From IMG/VR virus record IMGVR_UViG_3300025276_000021: a stretch of 64,000 bases of DNA, one strand, 5' to 3'. Positions 2,006 through 61,625 of this stretch are shown here, piece by piece. Origin of the DNA: a virus. The translations under genes and the position numbers were made by a program. Below the pieces are notes generated by a model. It was not told the DNA's origin and made no database searches. It saw only the letters and a program-made list of their open reading frames with translations. Within the stretch, counting starts at the first letter, position 1, and each line of letters opens with the position of its first letter.

Positions 2006-2947
2006 TTAAAATTTTATTCGCATATTAGCGTTTATTCTAGAAATCTCTATTGCCAAATCTTGATTTCTGTCGTGCATCTCAATCTCTTTGCCGAGTTTAT
2101 TTTCAATCCAATCCTCAGCTTTGTCCCATTCAAATTGAACACCAGAGCGCATATCATTTCTTATTTCATGGGTCATATGTACTTGTCTTATTTTATAATT
2201 ATTAACAATTACCTCGTCCCATTGTCCAGCTGGCATCCGATCTTCATTATAATGACTTTGTATCTTTTTGGCAAGTGCTTTAGCATTCTTCTTATATGTT
2301 TTTGTTGCGGCTTCAATATAACCTTTGATAATATCAGAAAGTTCTCCGCTTCTATTTTTTTGCTTTAATTCTGCAGGCAGAAGTTGCCAATACATGGTTA
2401 GACTTTCGCCTTTATTATTAGGTTTTTTACCCCAAACTCTTTCAATAGCACTTATAACATATTTTTCCATATCAGCAGGCATAGTTCCCAAATCCTTTAG
2501 ATCGACCTTGGTATTTTCAAATTTATCAGTGTATGTATCAGAGCGAGCCAATTCATACATTTCATACCAACGCCTGCCCGAATTGTCGGGTTCTGATCCA
2601 ATATCACCGGAGAACGATCCTAACAAATCAGCTTCCAATTCATAGATAACTTGAGCACCACTAGTGGCGACACCTCTAGCAAGACTCGTAGAGGACATAT
2701 TCAAAAATGCGGAAATGCCGCGCTTTTTGTTCTCACCTTTAAACATCGTTTTATGAAACTGTTGAGCTGCAATATGCCAGCAAGTTATTCTTGGAGGAGT
2801 AGGAGTGATCTGTTTCATTTGTGCTGAGGACATAGGCATCCAAAAATTTGCAATGCCTTCATTATCGCTTTTTTTGATATCAAATAGCTTTTGAGATAAA
2901 CTACTTTTACCATGCAATTCTAATAAATAAGACTTAAAATTTTGCAT
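2006..2947 (-). CDS. putative capsid-targeted internal protein; paralogue of 3406-4362; possible ADP-ribosyltransferase-like fold
   Basis: N-terminus MQNFKSYLLE; WH..GISAF..IYEL..GRRW..WDEVIV motifs shared with the paralogue. Confidence 0.55.
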   Translation of the reverse strand: MQNFKSYLLELHGKSSLSQKLFDIKKSDNEGIANFWMPMSSAQMKQITPTPPRITCWHIAAQQFHKTMFKGENKKRGISAFLNMSSTSLARGVATSGAQVIYELEADLLGSFSGDIGSEPDNSGRRWYEMYELARSDTYTDKFENTKVDLKDLGTMPADMEKYVISAIERVWGKKPNNKGESLTMYWQLLPAELKQKNRSGELSDIIKGYIEAATKTYKKNAKALAKKIQSHYNEDRMPAGQWDEVIVNNYKIRQVHMTHEIRNDMRSGVQFEWDKAEDWIENKLGKEIEMHDRNQDLAIEISRINANMRIKF

Positions 2948-3406
2948 CTATTTTGCTTTCCTTGTCAATATATAAAGAGATAATTCATCCAAATCTAGTT
3001 CTTCAATTTTAAAGCCCATTTTAGTAGCAAATCGTTTTACTAATTTACTGTATAATTTGTTTCTGCTTCCGCTCTCACCATCTTCGGCAGATTTAGATGC
3101 TGTAAAACTTGCGACTTTTATTTGTGGATTTTTCTCTATAAATTCTTTTATGTGGTTTATTACTGCGCCAAATATTTGCATTTGGTCGCCTTTACCAGTA
3201 ACAGACATATCACCACCAACACTGAATACAATATTAACGTCCGATTTTTCAGGAATATTTTTAGATTGTGACCAATTATAAATCATTTCTACAAATTGTT
3301 TACCTATTCGACCGAGATATTTTTCAGTTTCAGGTCTGGTGCTAGTTTGTTTCCACTGAATTTTAGTGTTGAACGATTCGCCCAAATGTGATTTAAAACT
3401 TATCAT
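2948..3406 (-). CDS. putative capsid-targeted internal protein of unknown function
   Basis: N-terminus MISFKSHLGE; TGKGD..IF..V...I.EF...F.A.K...SR.KLY pattern. Confidence 0.55.
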   Translation of the reverse strand: MISFKSHLGESFNTKIQWKQTSTRPETEKYLGRIGKQFVEMIYNWSQSKNIPEKSDVNIVFSVGGDMSVTGKGDQMQIFGAVINHIKEFIEKNPQIKVASFTASKSAEDGESGSRNKLYSKLVKRFATKMGFKIEELDLDELSLYILTRKAK

Positions 3407-4362
3407 TAACTTTTAATCCTTGTTGCTAATATATGGGACTGTAAATCTCTAGAATTATCCCACTCAACAACCTCTATACCTCTACTTTTAGCATCTTCCA
3501 TTGCATCTGTAACATCTGACCATAATCCATTTACAAATTGTGGTGCGGAGAGTAGTACATGTAGTTTTTTAACTTTATACTGATTGACAATCATTTCGTC
3601 CCAGGCAGCCTTGTCCAACTTATCAACATATTGTTTTTTTAGTGCAGTCGCTATTTTCTTTGAATTTTTCATATAAGATTTGTTGACTGTATCAATATAA
3701 CCCTTGATAATATTGCCCATCTCTTTTTTTGCGCCAGCTGAGTCAGGCGAACCATGTTTATCTTCTAAGTGTCTTGGTACATCTACCCAATCTGGGCGTA
3801 AGCCTCTTTTTGTATGTCCGTCTAAATTGCCTAATACTTTTCTCACATATGTTTCTATATCTTTGGGTAAACTACCCAAGTCGTTTTTCTCAAGTGGTCT
3901 ATGTAAATCGTTGATATGTGGGAAATCAGAAGTGTTATGGAATCCAGTGTCTAATAATGATTGCAATGTTACCCATCTTCTACCAGTCTTATCTACGCCT
4001 GAACGCACATCCGTTTCGAATGAACCTAAAAGATTAGCATCTAATTCATAGATAAAACCACCGCCAGACGCAATACCTCTATCCATACTACTTGGTTTCA
4101 TATTTCTAAATGCGGACAGTCCAGATTTTTTGTTTTGTCCTTTAACAAGTTTATCGTGATTACTTTCGCTAGTGACATGAAAAACAGAGCCTCTAATTTC
4201 AGTTGGCATCACTCTTTTTATGTTTGCATTACCCATAGGTATTTTAAATGACATTATATCACCATCTTTGCCGCCGAAAAGAGGCATATTAAAGAGATGC
4301 TTGGATAAGCTTGCCTGACTAAAAACTTCCTCTAATTGCATATATTGATAGAATGTTTTCAT
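3406..4362 (-). CDS. putative capsid-targeted internal protein; paralogue of 2006-2947; possible ADP-ribosyltransferase-like fold
   Basis: N-terminus MKTFYQYMQLEE; FHVT..GLSAF..IYEL..GRRW..WDEMIV. Confidence 0.55.
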   Translation of the reverse strand: MKTFYQYMQLEEVFSQASLSKHLFNMPLFGGKDGDIMSFKIPMGNANIKRVMPTEIRGSVFHVTSESNHDKLVKGQNKKSGLSAFRNMKPSSMDRGIASGGGFIYELDANLLGSFETDVRSGVDKTGRRWVTLQSLLDTGFHNTSDFPHINDLHRPLEKNDLGSLPKDIETYVRKVLGNLDGHTKRGLRPDWVDVPRHLEDKHGSPDSAGAKKEMGNIIKGYIDTVNKSYMKNSKKIATALKKQYVDKLDKAAWDEMIVNQYKVKKLHVLLSAPQFVNGLWSDVTDAMEDAKSRGIEVVEWDNSRDLQSHILATRIKS

Positions 4363-4625
4363 TTTCTATTCCTGAGTCTCGGTTCTCTACGATTATATCT
4401 TACTGTGACTGACGCTAGATTTTTCAAGTCATTGTTGAGAGGATTATTATCTTTGTGATGGATGTCACGACCATCTCCATCCTCTGCCATTCCAGACCGA
4501 ACAGCGGCGCGTCTTGCTCTTTTTCTAGCTGCATTTCTTTTCATCTGCTCAGGAGTACCAAGATAGTTTTCGCGTTCTTTTTTATAGTCTCTACCTTCAC
4601 TAATATATGCTTTAAAAGTTTTCAT
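4359..4625 (-). CDS. small basic HNH endonuclease-like protein with capsid-targeting-like leader
   Basis: MKTFKAYISE; DIHHKDNNPLNN..NL......NR HNH motif. Confidence 0.7.
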   Translation of the reverse strand: MKTFKAYISEGRDYKKERENYLGTPEQMKRNAARKRARRAAVRSGMAEDGDGRDIHHKDNNPLNNDLKNLASVTVRYNRREPRLRNRK

Positions 4626-5191
4626 GCTACATTATCCCAAAAAGTTTTACTAATTTCGCCTGCAGGAGAGGCAGACGTACTAGATGCTGGAGTGTTTGCA
4701 GTCCCACCCATATTGCTGTGGTTTGTACAGTAATAATATAAATTAGGAGCACCAACAGCAACAGTTATCTGAGTATATGCTCCAGCACTTCCCGGAGTTC
4801 CTGACGTTGTTACGCCCGTTGTGTATTCACTACCACCGCCATGTGTCCCATTAGATGTAGCACTGAATCTTAATGGATGGTTTGAGTTAGAAGAATCTGA
4901 TTGATCAAATTTATATGTTCTACCTTCTGATAAACTTAATATTCTCTCGGGCCCAACTGCATCTATATAATATCTATTTCCTACTCCTGGATTTGAAACT
5001 GTTACAGCAAAGGTAACAGTACCAGCACTTACTGTTCTGCGGACACTTGTATACACAGCATGACCATTTGTAGTTCTAATACCATTTGTTTGTTTTAACC
5101 ATAGAGGTCTTAATGGGCTATTAGCACCGGGATCAGGCGGAGCGTTATCATATTGCCAACTAGAATTGTTTGTAATATTTACGAACGCCAT
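4622..5191 (-). CDS. protein with cupredoxin-like (His/Cys-His-Met) module, probably a late or virion protein
   Basis: NHPLRF...LYYYCTNHSNMG; TATAAATA late promoter immediately upstream. Confidence 0.65.
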   Translation of the reverse strand: MAFVNITNNSSWQYDNAPPDPGANSPLRPLWLKQTNGIRTTNGHAVYTSVRRTVSAGTVTFAVTVSNPGVGNRYYIDAVGPERILSLSEGRTYKFDQSDSSNSNHPLRFSATSNGTHGGGSEYTTGVTTSGTPGSAGAYTQITVAVGAPNLYYYCTNHSNMGGTANTPASSTSASPAGEISKTFWDNVA

Positions 5192-5203
5192 GTGTCGGTC
5201 TCC

Positions 5204-6418
5204 TCATCGTTTGTTTTTACTATTTATATGTTTTAATAAATCTTCTTTATTGCTTTTACCAGTCTTAATAGAATAGTCTAGTGCAGATTGTAATACATCT
5301 CCAATAGCTTTACCCTTAAATCCAGCTTTAACTGCATCTCTACCATCTATTGGCATGTCTTTTACTGAAATATATTTTATACCCTTTAGTCTACTCGACA
5401 GAGTTTTAGATCCTTTTGCAGATAAAAATGCGTCTATAGCTCTAACATCAACACTTTTAGCATAGTTTGCAAGCTCAACATTATTCATACCTTCTTTCCA
5501 GTCTACGACATTTTGAACAATTTTTGCATCCGTATTCGAAAGTCGTATGACTGTTTTGGCAGTTGAGCCTGCTTTGTTTCCGTAGTCGCTAAGTAATATT
5601 CCCATGAATACAGCAAAATCACTTTTGCCGAGAGCGTCAATTGTTTTCAAATCGTTTGATTTTAATTTAATTGATTTAAATATATGTTTCATCAAACCAG
5701 AATCGAATAGTATTTTTACACCAATACTAGGTTTCTTAGATTTACTGAAAAGCTTTTTAAATTCTTCTTGGAATCTATCTGCGGAAATGGTAGAGATAGT
5801 GCTTGCTCTTTTCTTCATTTCCTTGTATGTCTCTTTTTCGATAGTAAAATCAAATCTTGATGCAAACTGCACAGCTCGAAACATTCTGAGAGGATCATCC
5901 TCGAACGATGTTGGACTGATCATGCGGATTTGCTTATTCTTTATATCCTTCATGCCTTTACCATCAACGTCTATTATCTCACCAGTATCAACATCTTTCG
6001 CTAGTGCATTTATCCAAAAATCGCGCCTTAGCTGATCTTGCTGTAGCGTAATGCCTTTACCAAGTTCTACTTCAAAGTCTTTATGACCTGAGCCTGTGCT
6101 TTTTGAGTCAATTCTTGGCACAGAAATATCTACATCCTCAGCTTCAGTAGAGCCTGTAGGAACAAATTTTAGAATGCCGAACGACTTGCCTACCATGTTG
6201 ACTTTACCGTGAGGCTTTAGAATTTTTTCTATATCATCTAACTCGATTCCAACAATGATAATATCAAGATCCTTAGATATTTTACCTATCATTTCATCAC
6301 GGACAACACCGCCTATTTGATATATTTTCCCACCCGCGCTTTTGATTGCTTTTCGTATCTGCGTTGACAGAAGGTCATCGACCATACTTTCATTCAAATG
6401 AGATATAAAACTTTTCAT
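5204..6418 (-). CDS. cca: class II tRNA nucleotidyltransferase (CCA-adding enzyme) with capsid-targeting-like leader
   Basis: GGVVRD...DLD (motif A), RRDFWINALA, EDDPLR, ISADRF..E; lacks the GR/K-R/K-F poly(A) polymerase signature; N-terminus MKSFISHLNE. Confidence 0.9.
   Translation of the reverse strand: MKSFISHLNESMVDDLLSTQIRKAIKSAGGKIYQIGGVVRDEMIGKISKDLDIIIVGIELDDIEKILKPHGKVNMVGKSFGILKFVPTGSTEAEDVDISVPRIDSKSTGSGHKDFEVELGKGITLQQDQLRRDFWINALAKDVDTGEIIDVDGKGMKDIKNKQIRMISPTSFEDDPLRMFRAVQFASRFDFTIEKETYKEMKKRASTISTISADRFQEEFKKLFSKSKKPSIGVKILFDSGLMKHIFKSIKLKSNDLKTIDALGKSDFAVFMGILLSDYGNKAGSTAKTVIRLSNTDAKIVQNVVDWKEGMNNVELANYAKSVDVRAIDAFLSAKGSKTLSSRLKGIKYISVKDMPIDGRDAVKAGFKGKAIGDVLQSALDYSIKTGKSNKEDLLKHINSKNKR
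5221..5228 (-). promoter_or_regulatory. T4-type late promoter
   Basis: TATAAATA 30 nt upstream of the ORF starting at 5191. Confidence 0.65.
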
Positions 6419-6428
6419 GGTTTATTCC

Positions 6429-6776
6429 TTACCAGTGTTGTACATCTGGATATCTGACAATTGCTCTAATTGATCTTACGGCTAGCTTTGCTGTCGGATC
6501 ACCCCTATCATATAATACAACCTCTGTACCATTTACAAAATCTGATACATTCACACCTTTGCCTATAAGAGACATGGTTCTGTGTAAATAATCATTTTCG
6601 TCGTAATCATTTTCAAATCCTGCTTTGCCTCGAACCTCAACCCACTTACTGCCTGGTAATGGTCGAATCCTTAGAATACCCATCTTACCTTGCCTGATAT
6701 AGGTCAATGCGTAAGACTCTTTTTTCTTACGTTGATTTTTCGTCAATTCAGTTATAAATCTAGTAAAAGATTTCAT
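6429..6776 (-). CDS. putative capsid-targeted internal protein of unknown function
   Basis: N-terminus MKSFTRFITE, very close to T4 internal-protein CTS peptides. Confidence 0.6.
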   Translation of the reverse strand: MKSFTRFITELTKNQRKKKESYALTYIRQGKMGILRIRPLPGSKWVEVRGKAGFENDYDENDYLHRTMSLIGKGVNVSDFVNGTEVVLYDRGDPTAKLAVRSIRAIVRYPDVQHW

Positions 6777-6781
6777 AGCAT

Positions 6782-7345
6782 TTATCCTTTCACATAAGGT
6801 TTGATAATAGTTTCTATGTTTTTTATGATTTTCTTATGTGTAGGACTAAGATCCTTACGATCAGCTTTTACAGCGTCTAAGGCTATTTTTGTATCGCCCG
6901 CATATTTCTTTTGCCATGATGCTGGCTGCTTTGCAATATCAGACACATTTGCTAATCTATCTGCAAGTTTAATAACAAGTGCCCAGCTTGTCATATTAAC
7001 CATTTTGCCTTTGATATATTCACCTTTGCCGCCGGCAGCTTCTAGATCATCTTTCTTAGTTGTCAATTGATCAACTAAATTTGCAACTAATCCACCAAAC
7101 TGTTTGACCAAATCGTCATGCGATAAGTCAGTGTCCTCTAACGTATCGTGTAGATATGCAGCTTGAACTAGTGCAGATAGATTTGAGGATTTAGGTTTGA
7201 ATTTTGCGACTATTTTCGCAACTTCTTTTGGATGAGCAATATATCTACCACCACTTTTCCTAAATTGTCCTTCATGTGCCTTTGTAGCAACTCTTAATGC
7301 ACTTAGGGCGCTTTCATTAAGCATATGCGACTTAAAAGATTTCAT
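6782..7345 (-). CDS. RelA/SpoT-family HD hydrolase (small alarmone hydrolase, Mesh1-like) with capsid-targeting-like leader
   Basis: AHEGQFRKSG..YIAHP, LHDTLEDT, IKLADRLAN; no synthetase domain; N-terminus MKSFKSHMLNE. Confidence 0.9.
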   Translation of the reverse strand: MKSFKSHMLNESALSALRVATKAHEGQFRKSGGRYIAHPKEVAKIVAKFKPKSSNLSALVQAAYLHDTLEDTDLSHDDLVKQFGGLVANLVDQLTTKKDDLEAAGGKGEYIKGKMVNMTSWALVIKLADRLANVSDIAKQPASWQKKYAGDTKIALDAVKADRKDLSPTHKKIIKNIETIIKPYVKG

Positions 7346-7419: not shown

Positions 7420-7836
7420 TTACTTTTTTCCGATGTTATATTTGGGACACAATTCCCAATTTACTTTTTCTTTAAAAGGAATAATCTTAATCTGTCTCAG
7501 AGGTGCCATAATTTCGGCTGCCTTACCATTAACTAAAGTAATCAATCCCCAATCAGAAATGAGTGTTGCTATAGTGTTTCTTCTAGCAACGTCACTTTCT
7601 TCAAGGTTAGATTTTTTACCATCTAGTAGAAATAGTTCCTTAAAATGTACTATAAAGTATCTACCCTGCTTATGCAGAATATGACACGATTGAAATAATT
7701 TATTCTCTTTTCTACTCGAAACGCCGATTCTAGTTAAAGTTTCACGAACCTTCAGAAAATCGTCAGGTTCGTTTAAGGTAATCTCTAACATGGATTCCGG
7801 AGTCCAAGCAACTATATTTGATTCATCCATTGTCAA
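7420..7836 (-). CDS. regA: translational repressor RegA
   Basis: MLEITL.EPDDFLKVRETLTRIG...LFQSCHILHKQGRYFIVHFKELF. Confidence 0.97.
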   Translation of the reverse strand: MTMDESNIVAWTPESMLEITLNEPDDFLKVRETLTRIGVSSRKENKLFQSCHILHKQGRYFIVHFKELFLLDGKKSNLEESDVARRNTIATLISDWGLITLVNGKAAEIMAPLRQIKIIPFKEKVNWELCPKYNIGKK

Positions 7837-7874: not shown

Positions 7875-7882
7875 TATTTATA
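7875..7882 (-). promoter_or_regulatory. T4-type late promoter upstream of regA
   Basis: TATAAATA in the intergenic gap. Confidence 0.65.
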
Positions 7883-7899
7883 CATTTTAAGAATTTACG

Positions 7900-8283
7900 T
7901 TATCGCGCTTTTTTACCACCTTTACTCAACTTTTGTTTAATATGGTCTAAATGCTCTTTTGAAATAAGAGATAGTACCTCTTTGGCACGAGGATTCGAGT
8001 ATCCATAATACTCTTTGATTAATTCTAAGTTTCCAACTTTCTCTGCTTTGAACCACTTAGAAAATCGTTTGCGTTTTCTTACCATATTATTCAAAAAGTC
8101 GTACTGCATTCTAGCAGGAATAGTATGATTAATATTCATTTGATTTGCAATACCAATAGTGTCGTGAAAATAAGATAAGCCACGATTTACCATCCAGCTA
8201 CTATACGCTTTCTCTGCTAAATCGTCTACCATAATATCGTCTTTTTTAATATTGATTGAATTTAAATAATCAAAATGATTCAT
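7900..8283 (-). CDS. gp62: clamp loader small subunit
   Basis: FDYLNSIN...YSSWMVNRGLS...RKRKRFSKW...IKEYYGYS; synteny. Confidence 0.93.
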   Translation of the reverse strand: MNHFDYLNSINIKKDDIMVDDLAEKAYSSWMVNRGLSYFHDTIGIANQMNINHTIPARMQYDFLNNMVRKRKRFSKWFKAEKVGNLELIKEYYGYSNPRAKEVLSLISKEHLDHIKQKLSKGGKKAR

Positions 8284-8888
8284 TATAATGCCTTTATGAT
8301 CGTCTGCATACGCATCACATCCATCACAACATCATGCCGGGCATCATGCGCTATGAATTTTTCTTTGCATCCGTCTGGAATATAACTGTTTCTTGTATTT
8401 GATCCATATAAGAGACCGTCAAGATATGATCTTGTATCACGTACCATCCAGAAAGGATACGGAATAGCATTTCCAGTTTCTTTTAAGATGCCTTCAAGAA
8501 TGGGAATATCAAATGTGTTTCCACGAGTGAATACTGTCTTTAGATTATTCATGTTTACATTTATTACAAAAAAATTATACAGCTTGTCAATAGATTGATC
8601 AATACTAGGATCAGGATCAAGCACTTTCTTAGCTTCAGGACCTTGCGTATTCCACCAATCTAATGTGCCTTTCTGAATTTTTCTATCATATTTCTTAACT
8701 TGCTCAGTAACATCAAATTTCATATATTTTGTATTTTCTAGCAATTCCTCATATGTATAAGGATCATTGCTGAATCTACCACTTGTATATGTAAGTAATC
8801 CTATAGATAGGACAACACCTCTATTGACGTCCGAAGAAAGGGTCTCAAAATCAAAAATTACGCAATCATCTGCTGACATTATAGCCAC
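8283..8888 (-). CDS. dexA: DEDD 3'-5' exonuclease (DexA-like)
   Basis: IFDFETL, RGNTFDIPIL, VRDTRSY, HDARHD. Confidence 0.85.
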   Translation of the reverse strand: MAIMSADDCVIFDFETLSSDVNRGVVLSIGLLTYTSGRFSNDPYTYEELLENTKYMKFDVTEQVKKYDRKIQKGTLDWWNTQGPEAKKVLDPDPSIDQSIDKLYNFFVINVNMNNLKTVFTRGNTFDIPILEGILKETGNAIPYPFWMVRDTRSYLDGLLYGSNTRNSYIPDGCKEKFIAHDARHDVVMDVMRMQTIIKAL

Positions 8889-18405: not shown

Positions 18406-19755
18406 TTATGCACCCAGAATGTTGTCAACTCTGAAGATTCTGTAATACTGATTAGTCTTAGCGTTTGCAAGACCGTCAGAAGCTGTTGGACCAACAAAAG
18501 GATTCGAAACCATGCCGTAGCGGGTCTTAAAGCCGATTTTTGGTTGAAAGCTATCCTCAGCAACAGCGCGAACCATTGTGAGAGGTACGTATGGGCAATA
18601 GAAGATACCAGCATCGTATGCATTTGTACCTTTATAGCCACATGTGATGTAGTCAACAGTTGCATATGGATCAACATATACTTTTGTACGACCGTTAAGA
18701 ACACCAGCAAAAGTGTTTCCTGTATCATCTACGTTCAAGTTGGCAGAGATTGCTGGAGCATAGTCTAGCATTCCGGTTGCAGCCAAGCATGACGCAACGT
18801 CCGAAGAAGTGATGATAAAGTTACCACGACCGCGGCGAGTATCTTTTGCGATTGCGTTTGCTTCGCGCTCGATTTGTACCATCAGACCTTTGAACTTTTC
18901 AACACTCCAACGACCGTCTGCATCTGTTTGCAGATCAAACACACCGTTAAGAAGGGTGTTAGCTTGACTTGCGCCAGTTTTAGCTTGGCTGTTGATTGTG
19001 CGGATAACTTCACGATTGATTTCCGCGAGGATTTCAGTCGAAAGAATGTTAGCCAGTTCACTTTCAGCGTCCAGACCGTGGATAGCTTTCAAGTCTTGTG
19101 CGAGTTCAAGCGAATATTCTGCTTTCAATGCGCGTGTTTTGGCTGATACGTCTGCACGATCAATGGTGAAACCCATTTCTGCCCATGCGCTTGCGCCGGA
19201 TGTGCCCAGTCCTTCGCCTTCAACTTTAGTCATGCCGCCTGCAGGAGCTGCACTATTACGGTTATCGTCGATAGTTGAGTCTGCGTTAGCATCAGCAACA
19301 CCAGCAAGACCAGAACCATCTACAATGTTAGTTGTAGCGGAATCGCCTGAGAAGCCAGTGACGGCTTCGCTATGCAGTGCTTCATTGCCGCTAGTTGCAC
19401 CAGCGCGAGTAGTTTTGTAGGTAGATTTCATTGCAAAGATCAGTCCAGTTGGACCAGTCATTGGCTGAACACCACATACGTCATATGCCATCATGTTAGG
19501 CATAGCACGACGAACCAACGAAATCAGAACTGGGTCCCAATTTTGTACGTTACCAGTGTTGTTTGCTGGAGCTGCTTCAGTCAGTCCACCAAAACCTTGG
19601 TATTGTGTGCGCTGCTCCATGAGAGCTTTTTCTTGGTTCTCAAGAACAACAGCAGTTACCGACTTGCGGTGCTTGTCTTGAATTGCGCCAGCAGATTCTT
19701 CATTCAGAACTGGTGCCCACTTTTCAATAAGTGTATTGTAGTTAGTTGTTTGCAT
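18406..19755 (-). CDS. gp23: major capsid protein
   Basis: EKWAPVL, DPVLISLVRRAMP, GVQPMTGPTGLIFAM, ELAQDLKAIHGLDAE, FYCPYVPL, FQPKIGFKTRYG; LTE/A cleavage-like site. Confidence 0.99.
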   Translation of the reverse strand: MQTTNYNTLIEKWAPVLNEESAGAIQDKHRKSVTAVVLENQEKALMEQRTQYQGFGGLTEAAPANNTGNVQNWDPVLISLVRRAMPNMMAYDVCGVQPMTGPTGLIFAMKSTYKTTRAGATSGNEALHSEAVTGFSGDSATTNIVDGSGLAGVADANADSTIDDNRNSAAPAGGMTKVEGEGLGTSGASAWAEMGFTIDRADVSAKTRALKAEYSLELAQDLKAIHGLDAESELANILSTEILAEINREVIRTINSQAKTGASQANTLLNGVFDLQTDADGRWSVEKFKGLMVQIEREANAIAKDTRRGRGNFIITSSDVASCLAATGMLDYAPAISANLNVDDTGNTFAGVLNGRTKVYVDPYATVDYITCGYKGTNAYDAGIFYCPYVPLTMVRAVAEDSFQPKIGFKTRYGMVSNPFVGPTASDGLANAKTNQYYRIFRVDNILGA

Positions 19756-19766
19756 TTTAATAACTC

Positions 19767-20867
19767 CTAGGTATTATTTTTAAGTGCGGCAACATAATGT
19801 GCCATGCTAGAGGAAACATCAACAGGCGCTTCTGTTTCTTCGCTTTCTTCAGTAATCATTGTTTCTTCAACTAGATCAGCATGTGTTTCTACATCTGATT
19901 TATTTGAAAAATATGATTCCTTGATGGTTTCGACTTTAAAGAGAAACGACTCAACGTCCTCAAATTCGATTCCTTCTGCTAGTTTTTCTAATTTGGTTGC
20001 TTGAGTATCTGCAAGATCCTTAGAAGCTTCACGAATGATCGCGAGGCGTTGTAGGTCTTTTACATGCTCATTCATTTCCATATTAGTAGCTGTTTGCTTG
20101 TTTAGGCGAGTCTCAAGTTCTTGGACTTCCTCTGCAAGCTGGTCAACTAGATCAACTTTGGATTCTGGAACTTCGATATATGACTCAGTAAACAGGTCTT
20201 TCAACTTGCTCATAAATCCTTCTGAAATTTCATTCCGAATACCAGTCTCAACAGCGAGACGGTTTTCTTCTACCCATTGTTCGACTACATAGTTAAGATA
20301 AGAATCAATTTTGTCTACCAATTCGCTTTTGGCTTCCACAATTGCTTCCGAAGTCTCGTCGGCGTATTGCTCTTCGAGGCTTTCGATTCTATTGCTAAAT
20401 GCTTCTTCCAATTCTTGAACTTTTGATTCAACCCGAAGGTTCAATGCGGCTTCAAAAATAGTGCCAGCTTTATCTTTAAAATCTTCTGATAGTGACTCAT
20501 CGCTTGAAATCAGTGCTTCGAGATCAGCTTCGGTAGTATCTTCTACCATCACTTCTTCCTCGTCACTTACTTCAATTTCTTCGCCCATCATGCTTGAATA
20601 AGCCGCCATCAACTTAACTTTGTTAAGCTCTGACATTTTTTGGCTCATTGCATTGATCATACCCGCTTTAGTTTTCGGGGGTGATGCTTTTTTTACATTG
20701 CTAGTATCACCAGCGGCTTTTGCTGGATCAGCGGGGCCTCCGGTACCAGCATCTTCAGATCCACCGGCTGGCAGCTCCATGCTGCTCTCCGATACATCTA
20801 GTTCTTCGTTAGATTCCACAATTTCCTCATCATGGACTTCAACGTATTCTTGATCTTGATCAGTCAT
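19767..20867 (-). CDS. gp22: prohead core scaffold protein
   Basis: Acidic coiled coil; LSEDFKDKAGTIFEAA, IDSYLNYVVEQW. Confidence 0.93.
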   Translation of the reverse strand: MTDQDQEYVEVHDEEIVESNEELDVSESSMELPAGGSEDAGTGGPADPAKAAGDTSNVKKASPPKTKAGMINAMSQKMSELNKVKLMAAYSSMMGEEIEVSDEEEVMVEDTTEADLEALISSDESLSEDFKDKAGTIFEAALNLRVESKVQELEEAFSNRIESLEEQYADETSEAIVEAKSELVDKIDSYLNYVVEQWVEENRLAVETGIRNEISEGFMSKLKDLFTESYIEVPESKVDLVDQLAEEVQELETRLNKQTATNMEMNEHVKDLQRLAIIREASKDLADTQATKLEKLAEGIEFEDVESFLFKVETIKESYFSNKSDVETHADLVEETMITEESEETEAPVDVSSSMAHYVAALKNNT

Positions 20868-20881
20868 ACTTGACTCCTTTT

Positions 20882-21529
20882 TTATTTCAATAACGAGAGG
20901 AAATTTTCAAACCCACGAACTTGCGCTTCTTGCAATGCTCTTGATGGTGCTCTTTTTATTTCAGTCTCTATTTTTTCAATGTCTTGAGCCTCGATCAGAC
21001 CATTATTCCAAACCCACTCTACACCTTCCATAATTCCATTAACAAAAGCATTAGGTGCAGATGGATCCTGGACAATGTCGATAGTGCTAAGGACGAAATC
21101 GTCTTTAACTTCCATCACGCCGTTACGATTTTCCAGACTTCCCATACCACGAGTCGAAACACCTAGTTGAACACCGCCATCTAGCAGACCTTTAACAATC
21201 TTACCCATAGGAGTATCTAATATAAGTGCTTTACCCATCACATTATTTCCCTCAAAATTGAGATCCGTAATACGATGGGATACTTTATCCAAATTAATAG
21301 TCGGGCCTTCGGGGTGATTTAACTCACCAACAGCACGACCTTTGGAAACTTGTTCTGTAACATATTTGCCTACAGCTTTTTCCATAATCGCTTTCGGATA
21401 ATTTCTACCGTTACGATTTTTTTGGTCAGCTTGTGCAAATACACCTTCGATTTGATAAGACTTAGCTTCGCCTTTACCTTCAGTGACCAGTGATAGATCG
21501 TGGTCACAATATTCTGCGATTAGTTTCAT
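20882..21529 (-). CDS. gp21: prohead protease
   Basis: NRNGRNYP, GELNHP, GVSTRGMGS, DIVQDPSAP. Confidence 0.97.
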   Translation of the reverse strand: MKLIAEYCDHDLSLVTEGKGEAKSYQIEGVFAQADQKNRNGRNYPKAIMEKAVGKYVTEQVSKGRAVGELNHPEGPTINLDKVSHRITDLNFEGNNVMGKALILDTPMGKIVKGLLDGGVQLGVSTRGMGSLENRNGVMEVKDDFVLSTIDIVQDPSAPNAFVNGIMEGVEWVWNNGLIEAQDIEKIETEIKRAPSRALQEAQVRGFENFLSLLK

Positions 21530-21532
21530 GTC

Positions 21533-21736
21533 TTATCCTTTACCTTTAGAAAATTGTTTAATAAACTCTTTAGCCATTTTAATAGCATCTTTTTCAGAAT
21601 CGTAATCATCTAAATGTTCGCCGTCGATAGTAGCTTTAAATCGATCACCAGCTTTAGTGACAACAATCGTTTGATCTCCAACCTTAACTTTTTTCTCAGT
21701 CAACAACGATTCTTTTAGTTCATTAAAAGTTTTCAT
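21533..21736 (-). CDS. prohead core protein (gp68-like position)
   Basis: Probable start MKTFNELKES at 21736; immediately upstream of gp21. Confidence 0.6.
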   Translation of the reverse strand: MKTFNELKESLLTEKKVKVGDQTIVVTKAGDRFKATIDGEHLDDYDSEKDAIKMAKEFIKQFSKGKG

Positions 21737-22082: not shown

Positions 22083-23858
22083 TTATATTGGTGTACCTTC
22101 ATTATATGGCAATTTCTTGAAACCACCTGTACCAGTTGAATTTGTTGAAAACCATATTACAACCATTGCTGGACCTCCAGGCATACCCGGCTGCTCAGTT
22201 CCTATATTGTTGCCACCACTTAAAAAATAGTTACTTGCCGCACCACCACCACAGCCAAATGCATTAAAACGGTTGCCGCTAGTATCCGCTGTGATACTAT
22301 TTAAGTAGGTTCTATGATCTGCTCCAGAAAATCCTCCATACACTCCACCACCGCCCATAGAGTTATTACCTGCGTTTGTGCCCGCTACACCTCTAGAATC
22401 TCTACCACCAGTCAGTGGAGTTAGATTTTCGTTAGTGTACTGTCCAGTTAGAAAAAATTTACTAAACCAATTTTGGGGATAATTTCTTCTACTTGAGCTT
22501 TTTTGGTAGTGTCTGTATTTAGCACTATTTTCAAACTTTAACTCATCGGCACTTGAAGAATAAGTTGGGGGACCAGAGCTGTGTGATGCCGACGGAAAAG
22601 ATGTAACTGATCCGCCCTGATACCCAACGCCAGAATGTTTGCTCCAAAAAGCATTGTTATTGTTATTGCTAAAAGGTGGATATGGGTCTACAAATGGGGG
22701 ATTAGTTCCATCATATATGACTCGTCGCCAAGATTCGCCATTGCCAGATAGTAATGGTAAAATACTACTTCCACCACTATTATATCCGCCAGGCGAATTA
22801 AATGAACCGCCAAACGTAGTGTACCACGTGTATTCACCGTTATATGTACTAAATGTTGCTTCAGATGCACCACCGCCTGCGCCGCCAAAATTGCCTTGGC
22901 TTCCAGAGCCACCATTTGTACCGCCGTCACCTCCATCTGCTTGATTTACTCCTGTCGCGTCGAAGCCGCCTGCGCCGCCACCGCCACCGCCGAAAGCTGC
23001 CGCTGTAGTAGGTCTGAGTACTGTTACACCTTCTCCACCAGTGCCACCTATTCCAATAAATGAGTTGCTTGGTTGAACAGGGATAGTGCCACCAGCACCG
23101 CCATAAATTAGCGTCTGCATCGCTGTGCTGGGTGGGACATAATAGAAATCTGATCCACCCCCACCACCGCCGTTTACTTTAGCTATAATATTGTCTACAT
23201 GATCGTCTCCAGTTACGCCAGAAGAACTACTAATTATAATGGGTCCACCTGCGCCACCGCCCAATGTGGTGGCACCATTGTGGTAAGAACCGCCGGCATA
23301 ACCTGGTGATCCAATTTCAATCTTATATTGTCTATTTTTATCAAAAGGGATGCCGTGAGTAGTCAACAAACATGAGCCTCCACCACCGCCACTACCGCCC
23401 ATGAGCCATTGCTGACCTTGGTAGTTAGTAGTTCTCTCACTTAAACTACCACCGCCGCCGGCACTTAACGCATAAAATCCCCATGTACCTCCATCATATA
23501 CATCCATATCAGTACTCCAAGGAATTCCGCCAGTGCCGAAATCTTTTCCAAAGTAATAAGTTTTTGTTGCACCTTTAGATTCACTTGTTAGGGATCTAAC
23601 AGACCTAGTACCTGTCATATAAATGGTTGCAGCAATTGGATTTCCTGTAACACTATTTGCTGCTCCATAAAAATCAAACAGACTAATAGTAGTGCCAGCG
23701 CTGCCGGCTGGGATATTTTTTGTAGTTATATTATTTGGTACAAAGTTTCCCCCCAATGATCCACCTCGATAATATTCGAATAATCCTTGAGCATTCGTCC
23801 CACCAAACTCATTCTCTATATCATCTAATGATATAGGACCATGGTACGGTAAAACCAT
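22083..23858 (-). CDS. glycine-rich fibre-tip adhesin (gp38-like role)
   Basis: N-terminus LP..GPISLDDIENEFGG...EYYRGG; many poly-Gly motifs; coupled to the S74-type fibre. Confidence 0.6.
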   Translation of the reverse strand: MVLPYHGPISLDDIENEFGGTNAQGLFEYYRGGSLGGNFVPNNITTKNIPAGSAGTTISLFDFYGAANSVTGNPIAATIYMTGTRSVRSLTSESKGATKTYYFGKDFGTGGIPWSTDMDVYDGGTWGFYALSAGGGGSLSERTTNYQGQQWLMGGSGGGGGSCLLTTHGIPFDKNRQYKIEIGSPGYAGGSYHNGATTLGGGAGGPIIISSSSGVTGDDHVDNIIAKVNGGGGGGSDFYYVPPSTAMQTLIYGGAGGTIPVQPSNSFIGIGGTGGEGVTVLRPTTAAAFGGGGGGAGGFDATGVNQADGGDGGTNGGSGSQGNFGGAGGGASEATFSTYNGEYTWYTTFGGSFNSPGGYNSGGSSILPLLSGNGESWRRVIYDGTNPPFVDPYPPFSNNNNNAFWSKHSGVGYQGGSVTSFPSASHSSGPPTYSSSADELKFENSAKYRHYQKSSSRRNYPQNWFSKFFLTGQYTNENLTPLTGGRDSRGVAGTNAGNNSMGGGGVYGGFSGADHRTYLNSITADTSGNRFNAFGCGGGAASNYFLSGGNNIGTEQPGMPGGPAMVVIWFSTNSTGTGGFKKLPYNEGTPI

Positions 23859-26800
23859 TATTTATTTTCCTCATTTTCCAATTTTTCAATACGTCCTTTT
23901 AATTCTTTTATTGATTCTATCAATAAAGGAATAAGTTTTTCGTAGTATACTGCCTTATAACCATCTATTCTATCTATAACAATTTCTGGCATCACTGCCT
24001 CAACTTCCTGCGCAATAACACCAACATCTTTTAAATCTGTATTTCTACCTTCAGCTTTTTCGTTCCAGTTGAAAGTATATCCACTTAATGAAGAAATTTT
24101 ATCTAAAGAATTGTTTATTTTCTCTATATTTTCTTTCAACCTAGAATCTGATGAGTGTGCAGCTATTATATTTCCTGTAGCTCTAATTTCTCCTGCTACA
24201 GTGAAATCGCCAGTATAATTACCACTCATGGCTAAGGTTTCATTTGTAGCGTCTACTGTTATACCCTTATTCGCTACTGCCGTATATGTTGTACCGCCGC
24301 CTAAAGCATCATCGTCAATATCAAACGTGACTGTCTGATTCAATGCTGTAATAGAAAGTGCTGCATTTGAGGAAGCAAACGTAATATTTTGTTTATCTGC
24401 GTTCAATGTAGTTGAACTGGCGTCAGCTCCAACTATTTGACCTATAAAGAATGAAGGTTTAAATTGAAGTATTCCTGTTGCAGAATCATAAAATAAAGCA
24501 GCGTCTACGGAATCTGCTACAGCATTAGGGCCTATAGTTAAAGGCGGTGGCGGAGCTACATTAGTCCAACTATCACCGTTGTACTCTAATATATCATATT
24601 GCTGTGGGTTCGTAATCGTTACATCTTGCAATGAATCTAGCCAAGCGTATAATGTGACAGAAACACTATCTTCCGCCCAATCTGCAGACATTGTTGGCAT
24701 TAAACGAATACCAGTACCACCATTCCAATAAAAGCCATCTCTGCCAGATCCTGATGCTGGATCACTAGTTGAAAATATCTCTTGGTCATATGGAGAATTT
24801 GCAGCGTCATAACTCTTTATCCAAAATCTTGAAAAACTATGAGGAAAACTAATGTTAAATTGTCCTGTAGCTTCTGCATAAGCAAGTGAACCTTCGTTTG
24901 TCGGATTATCTTCAACTATAGTAAAGTTTGAATATGATCCATCAGAATTTTGTGCTGCTGTAATAGCTTCTGCATGTTCCGTTATGGCAGACTCTGGAAC
25001 AACAGGCATCAAGGCCGGAGCCAACGGTCCCGCTGCGGAATCAATTTTAGCTGCAGGTATTTGAGGTATTTCGGCAGCAACTAGTTCGTCTACATTTAAA
25101 GTTATAGTTCCTGTTGCTGCATCGTATGCTAATAGTTGAGCATATGTTCCAGTTCCAGTATTTACTGTTGTTATATCTAGTTCTGGCAACTCTGCAGTTT
25201 CTAAGGCATCTACGTTTAATGTGTATGTTCCACTCGCCTCGGTATATGCTAATTGAGCGTATGTGCCTGTGCCAGTATTTGCGGCAGAAAATAATTCTCT
25301 AACCCTCTCGTTGGTGTGATATTCGTTTATGTCGCCTTCTTGTATCTCATCTGTAGTATAGTGGCCAAGTGCATTTGGGACTGTGGCAAATGGATGGCTG
25401 AAAGTCCAAATGCCGCCACTATCATTCATCCATCTGATATATGCTGGTGGACCATCAATATCTATGCCAGCGCCGTCTGCCGAAGCTGCATCTGTTGCGC
25501 CAGAAGCTAATATAATATTTTTATCTGCGATTGTGACTTCTGTTGAATTTACTGTTGTAGTCGTACCATTAACAGTCAAATTGCCTTTAATAGTCACTAA
25601 TCCAGTGCTATCACCATGTGTAGCAGGATCAATAATAAGATTTGATGGTCCAAGTATTTGTCCAGTAAGTTCTACTGTGTCTGTGAGTAAATGTCCTTTA
25701 TTAGTTATTCTAGCTGCAATATCACCTTGCCAATTTGTTAAAGCTGAAGGACTTTGCTGTGTATCTTGAACAATAAAAGTATTTGATAGGAACTGCACAA
25801 CCAGATCTACATGATTATCTAAACTATTTGCTACTGAAGGTGGCTGCGCTGCAGCTTCATATGATGCACCTCCCACTTGAAATATTCCAGCATAAGAAAG
25901 TCCTGAAACGTAATGAGCGTCAGAAGTTGAAGGTGTACTCGCTAATCTAGCTAAATTTACTGATAAACATGCAGCTTCGAATCCTGCAGGTATAGATGAT
26001 GGTGACCACACGCCTCCGGAATGTATAACTCCCATTTCGCCGTCTATCATGGCTGAAATCAAAGCGGCTAGACCGCCATATGCACTAGGACCTAAGTTTA
26101 CAACATCTTCAATTATGCCAAATTTACTTAATTTTGTAAATGTTAGACCCACAAAATCTGCAGCATGTTCATAAAATAGCGAATCTGGATCCAATGGACC
26201 AGACTTTCTAATTCTATCTAAAGACCTACCGTTGAAAATAAAATATCTAACGTCTCCAGTAACTCCAGTAGCTCGAATGTCTACTTTGCCTTCAGGTATC
26301 AATAAAGCTGGGTTTTCATCGTCTTGTAAGATTTGACCTACTAGAATAGTTCGCCAAGGATCTTGATACCAAGTCTTTTTTGTCTCTGGATTATGATAAA
26401 ATCTTCCTGTTGCCAAATCGCCGCCAAGAATATCATTTCCTTCGCTGTCTGTATTAACTTTTTTATAGCCTACTGTCTCACCATACTTAGCTGCTTTATC
26501 AGAGTCATAAAATAGGTAAGTATCTCTCTTTTTTAAATCAACAACAGTTGTCTCATCCCAATTAAATTTTCCAGTATCTAAAGTTGAAAATTTTATGTTT
26601 GATATCAATCCTTGATTTATATTATGAAACGCAAATCCCCAGTGTACATCCTGTGCAAATATTGATAAGTCCACACCACTTCTGTAATCTGTTTGATTTA
26701 AATCGATGTTTATTTGATTAGTAATAAATGTTGAGCTTCCAAACGGCGTAGTATCAATTTTAAGACCATTTTCATTTTTCTCTATTTTAACTGTTGTGCT

Positions 26801-40578: not shown

Positions 40579-43500
40579 TATAGATATCCCTCATAAGATT
40601 GAAATGGATCGAATGTGACTTGAGTTGAGTCAAAGCCTATCGCTTTTGAACTATCTAGATCAAATATACGAATATATTGTATATCAGCTATATATGTAAC
40701 GCCAACTCCCATGTCACCGTTGTATTCGAAAATGACTTCTATATCTCCCGATGTTGAATCGTTTAATCGTGTGCCGCTCTCAATATGAGGAGTTCGAGTT
40801 GCTGAATCTATATGTTTACCGACAAAATTCAAATCTGTATTCCAATGAAGATTCGATTCTGATATATCATACGCTTTGACATAAAATATAGAATTACTAT
40901 CATCGTCATATCTACCTAGTTGAATATTATTTCTAGGTATACTTTTTGTGTATGACCAATTGATACTATCTCCTAAATCGTCAAACCTTTTAAGTTTTAT
41001 AATATGACTTGATCTATCAAAAGCTAAATCAGAATCTGGAGTAACTAAACTATCATGTATAAAACCTGTTAGCTCTCCGATGTAGCTGCCGTCAGATTCT
41101 ACAATAGATGTATATCCTGTAGGATTACTTAGTAGACCGTCTGATTCATACTTAAAAACATAATGAGGTACAGGTCTGTAACCATCTCTGAGAGTAAAAT
41201 TTAACGGTTCTTCATTTTTAGCGGGCGCGTTTGTACCGGAGCCAATAGTTACGAGAGGTTCAAAAGCAGCACTTTCTATTCCAGGATTAAAACTATGCAC
41301 TTTTCTATAAGCTTTTGCGTCTGCTGTGTAAGGACTAACATCTATAGATAATGGATTTCCGGATACTGTTGCATCTAGTATAACTGTATAGCTGTCTGTT
41401 GTTAAATCAGCATCGGGTAATGTAAATACATCGCCACTCTCTCTCATTTTTCTACTAACACGCATTTCTTTAATATACAAATTAGAAAAACTTTTAACTA
41501 TAGAATGAGATGTTATGTCATAATCGTCTGTTGATGCCAATAATAAGTTAGACTTTGACAATTCCTCTATATCAAGTTCTATATTCATAGAATCTATTTT
41601 ATTTCCATCAAAATATGAAAATAGAACATTATCCGATCCTCTATAGTTGAATGAATGGTGATGCCAGTCACCCAGGTCATTTGAAGCATTATTAAGTTTT
41701 ATTGATTTATTATTAATAATTAATGTACCATCTATGTTATATGCTAGTTGTTCGCCACCAGTCATATTTGAAGCAATATGCAATTTTGTATTACTGTCCG
41801 TAAAGGGTTGTCTATTAATAGGAAAGAGACCTGATGCTGGAGTGTTTGCTTTCCATCCCATAGATGAGTGATTTGTGCAGTAATAATAAAGTGTCGGCGC
41901 ACCAGATGCCACAACTATCTGGGTGTAAGCCCCAGCATTTCCCGGTGTTCCAGAAGTTGTCACACCTGTTGTATACTCACTTCCTCCATCATGCGTTCCG
42001 TTTGGCGTACTAGAAAATCTGAGAGGATGCCCAGAATTAGAAGATGCGCTCTGATCGAATCTGTATGTGCTGCCTTCTGTCAGTAGAAGTGTGACATCAG
42101 ATGTCGCAGTAGACCCATCGATAGCATATTTATTAGATGAACCAACATTATGATAAGGATGGTTTGAAGGATTGCCGCCAACGACTGTAGTTATTAAAGT
42201 TGTCGTTACAGATATAGAATCATACTTATCCGTTTTATGGATCATAAAATCTTCGATATATCTTTTCTTATTAACTGGCGTGTTAGGATTTTCAGTATCT
42301 ACTTTAAAATAAGGAATTCCTAACCTAAACTTGCTTTTGCTAGGTTTAATATCATCGCCAACCTGCATGATATTGGTTCCAATAAAAACATTTGCTTGCC
42401 TTGGGTCTGTCTGAAGTGCAGGATCTTGACCTCCTGTTTTTTCGAAGATACAATTTATCCACTTGAAGCATCTAGCATCATACTTGCTCCAGATCGAATT
42501 GCGGGGGGTACTTGTATTTGATATTAAACATTCTTCAAATCTTATATCTGAAGTGCGCCGCGAGGCATACACATGATAACTATTGCTCCTAAATTCGAAA
42601 TTAACTCTGTATGCGCGGCCAGAAACACTGTAAGTTGGTGCATATATAAGCGCCCATGGAGAATGTTTAAATGTTAAGTATGCAAGTTCTTTTAAAGCTC
42701 CTGACGGTGACGCGCCATCAGCCGCATTGCGCCCCGAAAATAACTCACCGAAATACGCTACGTCAAGAATAACATCAGTAGGATCATTTGTTGATCCTGT
42801 AATTAAAATATTTTTTCTTTGGTGAAAACCAAGCACGCCTGACATATTCGCAGTGCCGTGGTCATTAATTACAGTATATGTGCCAGGAGCTATTACAATA
42901 GCATCACCATCGTTTATTTGCGACATTTGTTGTTGTAATGAAAGACCTGATCCGTCTGGATTACTCCAATTATAGATAGTTCCTCCAGTATTTGCCACAT
43001 AATCTATAGCGTGTTGCGTTCCAGTTTCATGAGGCAAACCTTTTACAGATTTTATATTATTACCAACGAATAACTCAGCGTCACTATAATTAACAAAGAG
43101 TTGTTTGTTATACAATAAATTTGAAGATAATGTTCCAGTCCATGTTGATCCGTCTGAATCTATTCCTACTGATCCTATTTTAGATGTTGCAACGCTTCCA
43201 GCGTGCGTCCCATTTGCTGTAGTGCTGAATTTAAGTATATGAGTTGCGTTGCTGGTATCCGATTGGTCAAACGTATAAGTCGCGCCAGGTGCTAGGCTGA
43301 TGAGTGCCTGTTGAACGCCGTTCAAAAAATATTTATTACCATCACTCGTGGATGCCACAGTAACAACATAGGTCGTCGCGGTTGCAGCCGAATGATCAGT
43401 TGCCCCTCCCATACCTGAGTGATTGCCACAATAATAATTCAAAATAGGCTCACCAGCCGCTACCGTTATTTCAGTATAAGCACCCGCACTTCCTGGAGTT

Positions 43501-61617: not shown

Positions 61618-61625
61618 TATTTATA
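61618..61625 (-). promoter_or_regulatory. T4-type late promoter
   Basis: TATAAATA upstream of the 5142-aa gene. Confidence 0.75.

Follow-up and report, generated by a model that had tools for sequence, protein, structure and literature searches.

A leader resembling the T4 capsid-targeting sequence on a tandem gene cassette of an uncultured marine T4-like phage

Phage T4 loads internal proteins into its head by means of a short N-terminal peptide, the capsid-targeting sequence (CTS), and a leader of closely similar form opens seven of eight consecutive genes in the stretch of DNA analyzed here, a 64,000-nt part of an uncultured marine T4-like myophage (IMG/VR record IMGVR_UViG_3300025276_000021; hereafter “the window”). 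In T4, the first 10 residues of the internal protein IPIII are enough for packaging; residues 4 and 7 serve mainly in targeting and residues 8 and 10 in processing, and the prohead protease gp21 cuts after L/I-x-E (PMC9026906). A mutant with Asp at position 10 (D10) is targeted but uncut, which makes targeting and cleavage separable, and gp21 is active within the assembled prohead core (PMC9026906). The T4 internal proteins are basic (PMC9026906), and an anti-defense role at entry has been demonstrated for IPI* and, genetically, for IPIII. That the CTS enables T4-like phages to package diverse proteins is an idea already published (PMC3012670, PMC9026906).

The T4 ADP-ribosyltransferase (ART) Alt is likewise a head-packaged and ejected enzyme, processed by gp21 at a short N-terminal propeptide ending I-T-E, although this leader is unlike the CTS. 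In the giant phages phiKZ, 201phi2-1, and SPN3US, many head-internal proteins are cut after Glu by a distant gp21 homologue and are ejected (PMC9026906, PMC5694885); their propeptides, however, are long and variable with several sites, unlike a fixed 10-residue tag. The same leader type as in the window is also found on the cyanophage core protein T4-GC190, an enzyme with a nucleotidyltransferase fold that belongs to another enzyme family than the window proteins and is encoded by a single gene, not a cassette. In the papers searched, the term CTS was used for T4, P1, or giant phages only, and no paper linked T4-GC190, or any marine phage protein, to a CTS.

We consider it likely that the shared N-terminus in the window is a T4-type capsid-targeting and processing propeptide, and that the cargo behind it is packaged, cut, and, by analogy with T4, ejected. 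The identification of the tag is well supported, both by all tests that can be made on sequence and by a single proteomic observation in a cultured relative. Because the tag is the same as the head-loading tag of T4, the phage probably carries the tagged enzymes in its virus particle and, if the analogy with T4 extends that far, may deliver them together with its DNA.

A shared leader on seven of eight tandem genes

The block consists of eight minus-strand open reading frames (ORFs) at positions 2006-7345, tightly packed or overlapping, between the N-terminus of gp43 (2-313) and regA (7420-7836; Pfam Translat_reg). The T4 genome has no such block, and gp43 and regA are adjacent there. The eight genes are as follows:

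6782-7345, minus strand: tagged cargo 1, predicted RelA/SpoT-type HD hydrolase, like a stand-alone small alarmone hydrolase (SAH); 187 aa, leader MKSFKSHMLNE
6429-6776, minus strand: tagged cargo 2, 115-aa protein with no assigned family; leader MKSFTRFITE
5204-6418, minus strand: tagged cargo 3, predicted class II tRNA nucleotidyltransferase (CCA-adding type); 404 aa, leader MKSFISHLNE
4622-5191, minus strand: untagged exception, 189-aa protein with a tail-fiber/baseplate-like domain; N-terminus MAFVNITNN
4359-4625, minus strand: tagged cargo 4, very basic 88-aa HNH-motif protein; leader MKTFKAYISE
3406-4362, minus strand: tagged cargo 5, 318-aa paralogue of the 2006-2947 product; leader MKTFYQYMQLEE
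2948-3406, minus strand: tagged cargo 6, 152-aa protein of PHROG 16075 (a family of unknown function); leader MISFKSHLGE
2006-2947, minus strand: tagged cargo 7, 313-aa member of a widespread phage family; leader MQNFKSYLLE

The leader has the form M-x-x-F-x-x-(H/Y/F)-(L/I)-x-E, or is one to two residues longer. F4 and H, Y, or F at position 7, which are the targeting positions of T4, are present in all seven, and the leaders end in LNE, ITE, LNE, ISE, LEE, LGE, and LLE, that is, in (L/I)-x-E in 7/7. Behind the leader the proteins differ. Three bodies match Pfam families (HD_4, PolyA_pol with an RNA-binding domain, and HNH_3) and four match none, and the only paralogue pair consists of the 313-aa and 318-aa proteins, which are 33% identical. 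The exception at 4622-5191 matches tail fiber and baseplate families of PHROG (E 1e-22 to 1e-18) and is absent, truncated, or replaced in relatives; judged by these matches, the lone untagged member is itself a tail-fiber-like virion protein.

The leader is specific to this block. When the motif was run as a regular expression on every ATG, GTG, and TTG start of every window ORF of at least 35 aa, the matches at real gene starts were confined to the block and to one small gene beside the prohead protease gene (21533-21736, MKTFNELKE); the N-termini of the other ~35 window genes had no motif. The back-translated DNA pattern in its exact 10-residue form, ATGNNNNNNTWYNNNNNNYWYHTNNNNGAR, matches the window five times, each time at a start codon of the block, compared with 0.34 ± 0.52 matches in shuffled sequences, and none of 100 shuffles reached five.

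The comparison with T4 was read from sequence, for which 135 kb of NC_000866 were taken and the relevant genes translated. The N-terminus of ipII and ipIII is MKTYQEFIAE, and ipI reads MKTFKEF...ITE (full start MKTFKEFTSTTTPVSTITE). Alt starts with MELITELFDE, read as MELITE↓LFDE, and the gp23 site is SFLTE↓AEI. Run on the whole T4 genome, the DNA pattern matches at ipII, ipIII, and gene 61.1 and at position 155114, the last probably by chance, whereas a reversed-pattern control finds nothing; the pattern is thus specific for CTS-type leaders in T4, the sole phage in which they are defined. Gene 61.1 (NC_000866 18966-19130, minus strand) encodes a 54-aa hypothetical protein that starts with MKTFKEFIKE, a perfect CTS-type leader, yet it is not among the listed T4 internal proteins.

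The head-assembly genes of the window include the following:

18406-19755, minus strand: gp23 major capsid protein, maturation site GGLTE↓AAP, with L-T-E↓A at the position of the T4 site
19767-20867, minus strand: gp22-type scaffolding core protein, onto which the tag presumably docks (Pfam T4_CASP, E 2e-63)
20882-21529, minus strand: gp21 prohead protease, the presumed processing enzyme (Pfam Peptidase_S77, E 7e-40)
21533-21736, minus strand: small prohead-operon protein (67 aa; leader MKTFNELKE, 9 residues), encoded between a gp67-like gene and gp21

The corresponding gp23 sites in the cultured phages C48C1, HTVC008M, and Melnitz are FLTE↓T, FLGE↓I, and FLSE↓A. The gp21 proteins of the window and of the same three phages start with M-K-L-I-(A/S/T)-E, an N-terminal I-x-E site that parallels the LIE-9 site noted for T4 gp21. 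The C48C1 homologue of the small prohead-operon protein reads MRTFKELRE from an upstream GTG start. The window protein matched no family in Pfam or PHROG, so the name “prohead-core gene gp68” for it is based on gene position.

An earlier note on this DNA, made from the letters and their ORFs, had described most of this arrangement, and its description holds at the level of ORFs and N-termini: seven of eight consecutive genes share a start peptide, their bodies are unrelated save for one paralogue pair by both Pfam and pairwise comparison, and every leader ends in (I/L)-X-E. Its statement that T4 IPIII starts with MKTYQEFIAE and is cut by gp21 after (I/L)-X-E agrees with the T4 sequence and with PMC9026906. 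The note had asked whether the motif is equally frequent at the N-termini of other genes, which it is not. A gp21-family protease, a T4-type scaffold, and the gp23 L-T-E↓A site are encoded in the window, and the equation of the leader with a T4-type CTS and processing tag is supported by the same residues at the same functional positions. For the gene at 21533-21736, the start peptide was given correctly, whereas the prohead-core identity is a matter of position.

The likeness to the T4 internal proteins extends to a ~10-residue leader, M-K-(S/T)-(F/Y)-x-x-(F/Y/H)-(I/L)-x-E, with equal functional positions, to a gp21-family protease, to a constant tag before unrelated, fast-changing cargo, and to basic mature proteins. 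On the other hand, the T4 cargo is ~8-20 kDa in size, lacks enzyme folds, and is scattered over two loci, whereas the block has seven tandem tagged genes with products of mostly 12-44 kDa and three recognizable enzyme families.

Conservation and portability of the leader in relatives

The capsid protein (18406-19755) is 65% identical to that of C48C1 and 57-61.5% identical to those of DLP_6, Melnitz, S-SKS1, and HTVC008M; all but two of the listed relatives (65% and 61.5%) fall below 60% identity. A megablast search of the block against 50,697 phage records gave zero matches, and the block is thus without an annotated near-relative among these records. Two scans of IMG/VR yielded 24 related contigs, whose cargo proteins share 67-97% identity with those of the window, and all complete orthologues in these contigs keep the leader. 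Among 41 distinct 10-residue leaders pooled from them, position 7 is Y, H, or F in 40/41, a feature not imposed by the search; F4 (40/41), L/I8, and E10 hold as well, although all three were imposed. Positions 2, 3, 5, 6, and 9 vary as much as the residues behind the leader. The contrast is also seen in the 115-aa family, the body of which has 89% column identity: its sole variable columns are leader positions 2, 3, 5, and 6, whereas F4, F/Y7, I8, and E10 are fixed.

The leader is also portable. Clustering of the tagged proteins of the window and its relatives gave at least 10 unrelated cargo families, including families of 92 aa (DUF6321), 133 aa, 157 aa, ~280 aa, and 418 aa (DUF6267) that are new in the relatives. 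The content of the cassette differs among contigs by gains, losses, fusion, and fission; one relative (L002, 96% identical) lacks the 318-aa gene, with the joint exactly at the ATG. The Pfam profile of DUF6267, like that of DUF6321, begins right behind the leader. DUF6267 proteins of ~410 aa are tagged in three distant phages (C48C1, L042:3828-5048; L018:2028-3284; and DLP_6 at 52316), and DUF6267 may be a conserved packaged protein.

Three contigs encode ~280-aa fusions of the 133-aa and 152-aa modules (L006:3703-4542, L017:1636-2472, and L020:11745-12590), each of which stands alone elsewhere with its own leader. The fusion joint, KYES(Y/H)I(A/G)E↓AFNTKI, aligns with the stand-alone leader, ..FKSHLGE↓SFNTKI, so that the processing end of the tag is retained inside the fused cargo, and the fusion may be cut into two mature proteins. 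The portability asserted in the earlier note thus holds across the cargo families and at the internal joint, and the tag is absent from distant HD homologues.

The scan of related phages that the earlier note had suggested found the T4 ip genes and clustered tagged genes in C48C1. In complete genomes of cultured relatives, the DNA pattern marks three clustered genes in C48C1 (more by eye), two genes in Melnitz, two or three in S-SKS1, and one in DLP_6.

Two further kinds of leader were observed in the relatives. The untagged gene of the block is replaced in L002 (7720-8010), L003 (3118-3415), L006, and L020 by a 77-aa ORF starting with MIKTFSKFADG, which is leader-like with Asp in place of Glu; in T4, Asp at this position allows targeting and blocks cleavage (PMC9026906). 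In addition, a second set of short leaders (MIKLKDLLxE, MKILITES, MKINEIIIE, and MRLKNYISILE) occurs in the 313-aa (P0125-P0270) and HD (P0076-P0117) families. Like the main leader, they end in (L/I)-x-E; they are similar to the Alt propeptide of T4 and to the N-terminus of gp21, and they may represent the tag of another phage lineage.

Proposed packaging of the tagged proteins and competing explanations

Proteomic evidence comes from cyanophages. The “cytidylyltransferase” T4-GC190 has the leader MKKFSAFLSE in Syn9 (gp184), MKSFSQFLTE in P-SSM2 (gene 194), and MKKFSAFLNE in S-SM1 (gene 190); the S-SM1 protein was identified in the proteome of purified virions, with 25 peptide counts (Sullivan 2010; PMC3037559, Table S8). 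The S-CREM2 paper remarks that the virion proteomes of cyanophages repeatedly include cytidyltransferases and kinases, which may pass into the host (PMC10665884).

In the course of events that we propose, the seven proteins would be made with a leader of 10-12 residues, and the aromatics at positions 4 and 7 would dock onto the gp22/gp21 core during prohead assembly. The protease gp21 would then cut after the (L/I)-x-E that closes the leader, and the mature basic proteins would remain in the head alongside the DNA and exit with it at the next infection, by analogy with T4 IPI, IPII, IPIII, and Alt. For the seven proteins, we infer docking, cleavage, packaging, and ejection, as well as their targets. 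The locus itself is a plastic cassette between gp43 and regA in which units of leader plus cargo are gained, lost, fused, and split, and the likeliest role of the cargo would be to disarm or repair host responses in the first moments of infection.

The timing of expression bears on this course of events. Two T4-type late promoters lie near the genes concerned:

5221-5228, minus strand: TATAAATA, located in the 3′-terminal part of the CCA gene and 29 nt ahead of the ATG at 5191
7875-7882, minus strand: TATAAATA, 38 nt ahead of regA, which starts at 7836

The spacing at 5221 equals that of the sites before structural genes at 17649, 22028, 37829, and 61586. All 12 copies of TATAAATA in the window are on the coding strand, and eight lie 26-63 nt upstream of start codons, six of them before virion genes; the other two are those at 5221 and 7875. 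From regA to 7345 the minus strand shows no terminator-like site, and the 7875 promoter could read into the first three tagged genes. The earlier note had credited the untagged gene with a late promoter of its own; the site is indeed there, but it would also drive the four tagged genes downstream. In relatives, a sigma-70-like TATAAT precedes the first tagged gene at a short distance, and together with the TATAAATA sites of the window this suggests that transcription may be both early and late. The internal-protein genes of T4 are also expressed both early and late.

Several other features were observed around the block and in the virion module. A perfect sigma-70 promoter (TTGACA, 17 nt, TATAAT) immediately follows the block at 1970-1998 on the minus strand and precedes an Hsp20-family gene (1393-1935). 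An Rv2179c-like 3′-5′ exoribonuclease gene (8283-8888, minus strand) is located between the clamp-loader genes 62 and 44, which are adjacent in T4. There are also three very large virion-module ORFs, all on the minus strand, at 46158-61586 (5142 aa), 40578-46133 (1851 aa), and 23858-28636 (1592 aa), the first of which is preceded by a late promoter at 61618.

A number of observations weigh against packaging of the window proteins. The tag is not universal in the wider group, as the DNA pattern has no match in S-PM2 and one in HTVC008M, which is not above the reversed-pattern control. The virion detection concerns S-SM1 gene 190, which is outside the seven cargo families; T4-GC190 was undetected in the Syn9 and S-PM2 virion proteomes (PMC3037559, Table S8), and the S-CREM2 study cautions that co-purification with virions is possible for abundant enzymes (PMC10665884). 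As for expression, the total of TATAAATA copies in the window is not above chance (12 vs. 9.8), the copy at 5221 is not conserved in relatives, and the TATAAT of the relatives is of an early type. Finally, the isoelectric points (pI) of all seven cargo proteins are 8.8-10.6, compared with a median of 5.3 in a set of 41 other proteins encoded in the window (Mann-Whitney p 4e-5), but leaderless HD homologues are basic too (median pI 9.1-9.3), and for this reason we give basicity little weight.

The alternative explanation that survives best, which we nevertheless consider unlikely, accepts that the leader directs the proteins to the prohead core and gp21, but as assembly-phase components that are degraded or expelled around DNA packaging and are not delivered. 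T4 offers a precedent in gp67, gp68, and gp22, which are cut by gp21 and most fragments of which leave the head (PMC9026906), and the small prohead-operon gene at 21533-21736 bears the same tag. However, each cargo protein has one N-terminal site, as do the T4 proteins retained in the virion and unlike the multiply cut scaffold, and the cargo includes folded enzymes with intact motifs for tRNA or nucleotides, substrates that are absent from the prohead. Moreover, the tagged cytidylyltransferase is present in mature S-SM1 virions.

We judge it more improbable still that the leader is a cytoplasmic cleavage or recognition tag for gp21, used for activation or timed destruction, or some other docking peptide, without encapsidation. 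The conserved residues beyond the cleavage site are the T4 targeting positions 4 and 7, T4 gp21 acts in the assembled prohead core (PMC9026906), and the S-SM1 gene 190 protein was found in virions, all of which run counter to a cytoplasmic role, even though the early-type promoter of the relatives suggests synthesis well before heads assemble and the T4 D10 mutant separates targeting from cleavage.

A third explanation, for which we see only a slight chance, places the similarity at the RNA or DNA level, as a translation-initiation region, a RegA operator, or a recombination cassette, with no role for the peptide. The first codons are A/U-rich (ATGAAAnnTTTTAAA), regA adjoins the block, and cassette joints fall exactly at the ATG. 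The codons speak against it, as Ser3 is written AGT, AGC, TCT, and TCC (both Ser boxes), Leu8 with all six Leu codons, F4 as TTT or TTC, and E10 as GAA or GAG, and conserved residues written with such varied synonymous codons indicate selection at the peptide level. In addition, conservation reaches residue 10 with an aromatic/His toggle at residue 7, and the peptide is common to T4 ipII and ipIII, where peptide function has been shown. A translation-start feature in particular would not explain why the leader residues are kept at the internal fusion joint, far from start codons. That the N-termini are merely an unconstrained relic of 5′ ends duplicated at gene assembly, as the tandem layout and the one paralogue pair might suggest, is hardly credible, as the four key residues are retained, and the other leader positions drift, in orthologues whose bodies are as little as ~50% identical, and in the 115-aa family no columns of the protein vary more than those x positions.

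Cargo enzymes and their possible roles at entry

The HD protein (6782-7345) matches Pfam HD_4 (E 5e-15, 56 bits vs. a cut-off of 27.2), and its alignment with solved RelA/SpoT hydrolase domains, MESH1, and SAHs begins at residue 13-16. Its metal and catalytic residues are intact (HP38, HD66-67, ED70-71, and D129 in DR129), its size is within the ~170-190 aa class, and its predicted mature form has 176 aa and a pI of 9.6. These features predict a RelA/SpoT-type hydrolase that stands alone. Of 120 HD homologues, the ones above ~54% identity mostly bear the leader, whereas more distant ones of 168-177 aa begin at the first HD helix. The CCA protein (5204-6418) matches PolyA_pol (E 1e-18, 67.9 bits) and PolyA_pol_RNAbd (E 8e-15, 54.9 bits), has the motifs GGVVRD36, DLD50, and RRD131 and a DDPLR aligned to EDALR of a solved CCA enzyme, and aligns with solved CCA enzymes from residue 14-31 onward; its motifs mark it as a putative class II enzyme of the CCA-adding type. 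The leader is present in ~103/120 of its best homologues (49-100% identical), most exceptions being start-codon miscalls, and an identical copy of the protein is present on a 194,829-nt contig. The alignment with cellular enzymes that the earlier note had called for thus places the start of both enzyme bodies behind the leader. Leaderless distant HD homologues, structures and a Pfam DUF6267 profile that start behind the leader, and low model confidence for residues 1-10 of the 313-aa protein all mark the leader as an add-on.

A 595-aa metagenomic protein that joins a leader, a generic HD domain (PF01966), and a CCA enzyme (P0373) was considered as a Rosetta-stone link between the two activities and was set aside, as its HD part is unlike the HD_4 domain of the window.

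The remaining cargo is less clearly assigned. The HNH protein (4359-4625) matches HNH_3 over residues 51-80 (28.3 bits vs. a cut-off of 24.8), and with only 78 aa in its mature form and a pI of 10.9 it may bind rather than cut DNA. The 313-aa family comprises 155 clusters at 50% identity; 66/150 representatives have the strict leader, and many others have a second short leader (MIKLKDLLxE or MKILITE) that ends in (L/I)-x-E. The 313-aa and 318-aa proteins have invariant H58, D115, and E245. The AlphaFold2 (AF2) model of the 313-aa protein has a mean predicted local distance difference test score (pLDDT) of 86.9, with residues 1-10 below 50. Its best fold matches are weak (CteC, Tpt1, and DarT at Z 5.3-4.5; Foldseek E ≥ 0.02), with no Foldseek match at E ≤ 0.001, and in the ESM Atlas the named families closest to it are Arr and DarT/PARP (0.87). 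On these weak but concordant matches, the pair possibly has an ADP-ribosyltransferase-like fold. In this they may resemble Alt, although the ART assignment is weak (Z ~5) and no sequence similarity of Alt to the paralogues was noted. The 318-aa protein also has a weak Pfam match to a CDI-toxin nuclease domain (E 0.007), which is under the cut-off. The 115-aa protein has no Pfam or PHROG match and close relatives only, and its AF2 model is of low confidence (pLDDT 61). Its placement in the 2H phosphoesterase clan (ESM Atlas, 0.84-0.88) was rejected, as there is at most one HxT, the AF2 model is poor, and the Foldseek matches are unrelated and weak.

The gene for the CCA-adding enzyme is located two genes downstream of that for the HD protein. 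SAHs are known to reverse the pyrophosphorylation of the tRNA CCA end by toxic small alarmone synthetases (toxSAS) (Kurata et al., bioRxiv 10.1101/2021.04.30.441581). The HD protein is of the same size as the toxSAS-reversing SAHs (ATfaRel, MESH1, and PaSpo), stands alone as they do, and aligns to solved SAHs; however, the known SAH antitoxins are not virion proteins, and the activity of the HD protein is predicted here. Candidate roles for the HD and CCA proteins are a tRNA 3′-end repair pair or the removal of alarmones in starved or toxSAS-armed hosts, with (p)ppGpp as the alarmone in the case of starvation, although the pairing may instead reflect general tRNA repair or a reset of the stringent response. 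Action of the pair on tRNA ends or alarmones at entry is conceivable, but we hold it doubtful. One consideration counts against a counter-defense role: the toxSAS CapRel is described as triggered by newly made capsid protein (PMC9712102), and with a trigger so late in infection pre-loading is not obviously needed.

The most far-reaching form of the proposal is that abundant uncultured marine T4-like phages pre-load an exchangeable kit of tagged enzymes, injected with the DNA, by which tRNA, alarmone, and starvation responses of the host are reversed before phage expression. In this phage the kit would comprise a hydrolase for alarmones or tRNA pyrophosphate, paired with the CCA-adding enzyme for the repair of tRNA 3′ ends, as well as two ART-like enzymes and the small HNH protein, and the tag would make the injected proteome of thousands of uncultured phages readable from sequence alone. 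As a whole this is speculative, and we regard it as rather unlikely. The CTS, the variable internal proteins, and Alt as a packaged enzyme are established concepts in T4, which the present finding extends and does not found. New here are the occurrence of the tag in marine T4-like phages, its arrangement on a cassette of seven tandem genes, and host-like enzymes (the HD hydrolase and the CCA enzyme) among the cargo. Proteins that enter with the phage genome are the first line against host defense, and they are hard to find because they lack a common fold. If the tag works as in T4, the combination of M-x-x-F-x-x-(Y/H/F)-(L/I)-x-E and gp21 would identify the packaged proteome of a very abundant group of ocean phages. 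The same rule would explain the cytidylyltransferase-like enzymes in cyanophage virion proteomes, and hundreds of uncharacterized families, such as the 313-aa family, DUF6267, and DUF6321, would become candidate injected effectors. A RelA/SpoT-type hydrolase and a CCA enzyme delivered as proteins would be the first case of ready-made tRNA-end repair or alarmone removal at infection.

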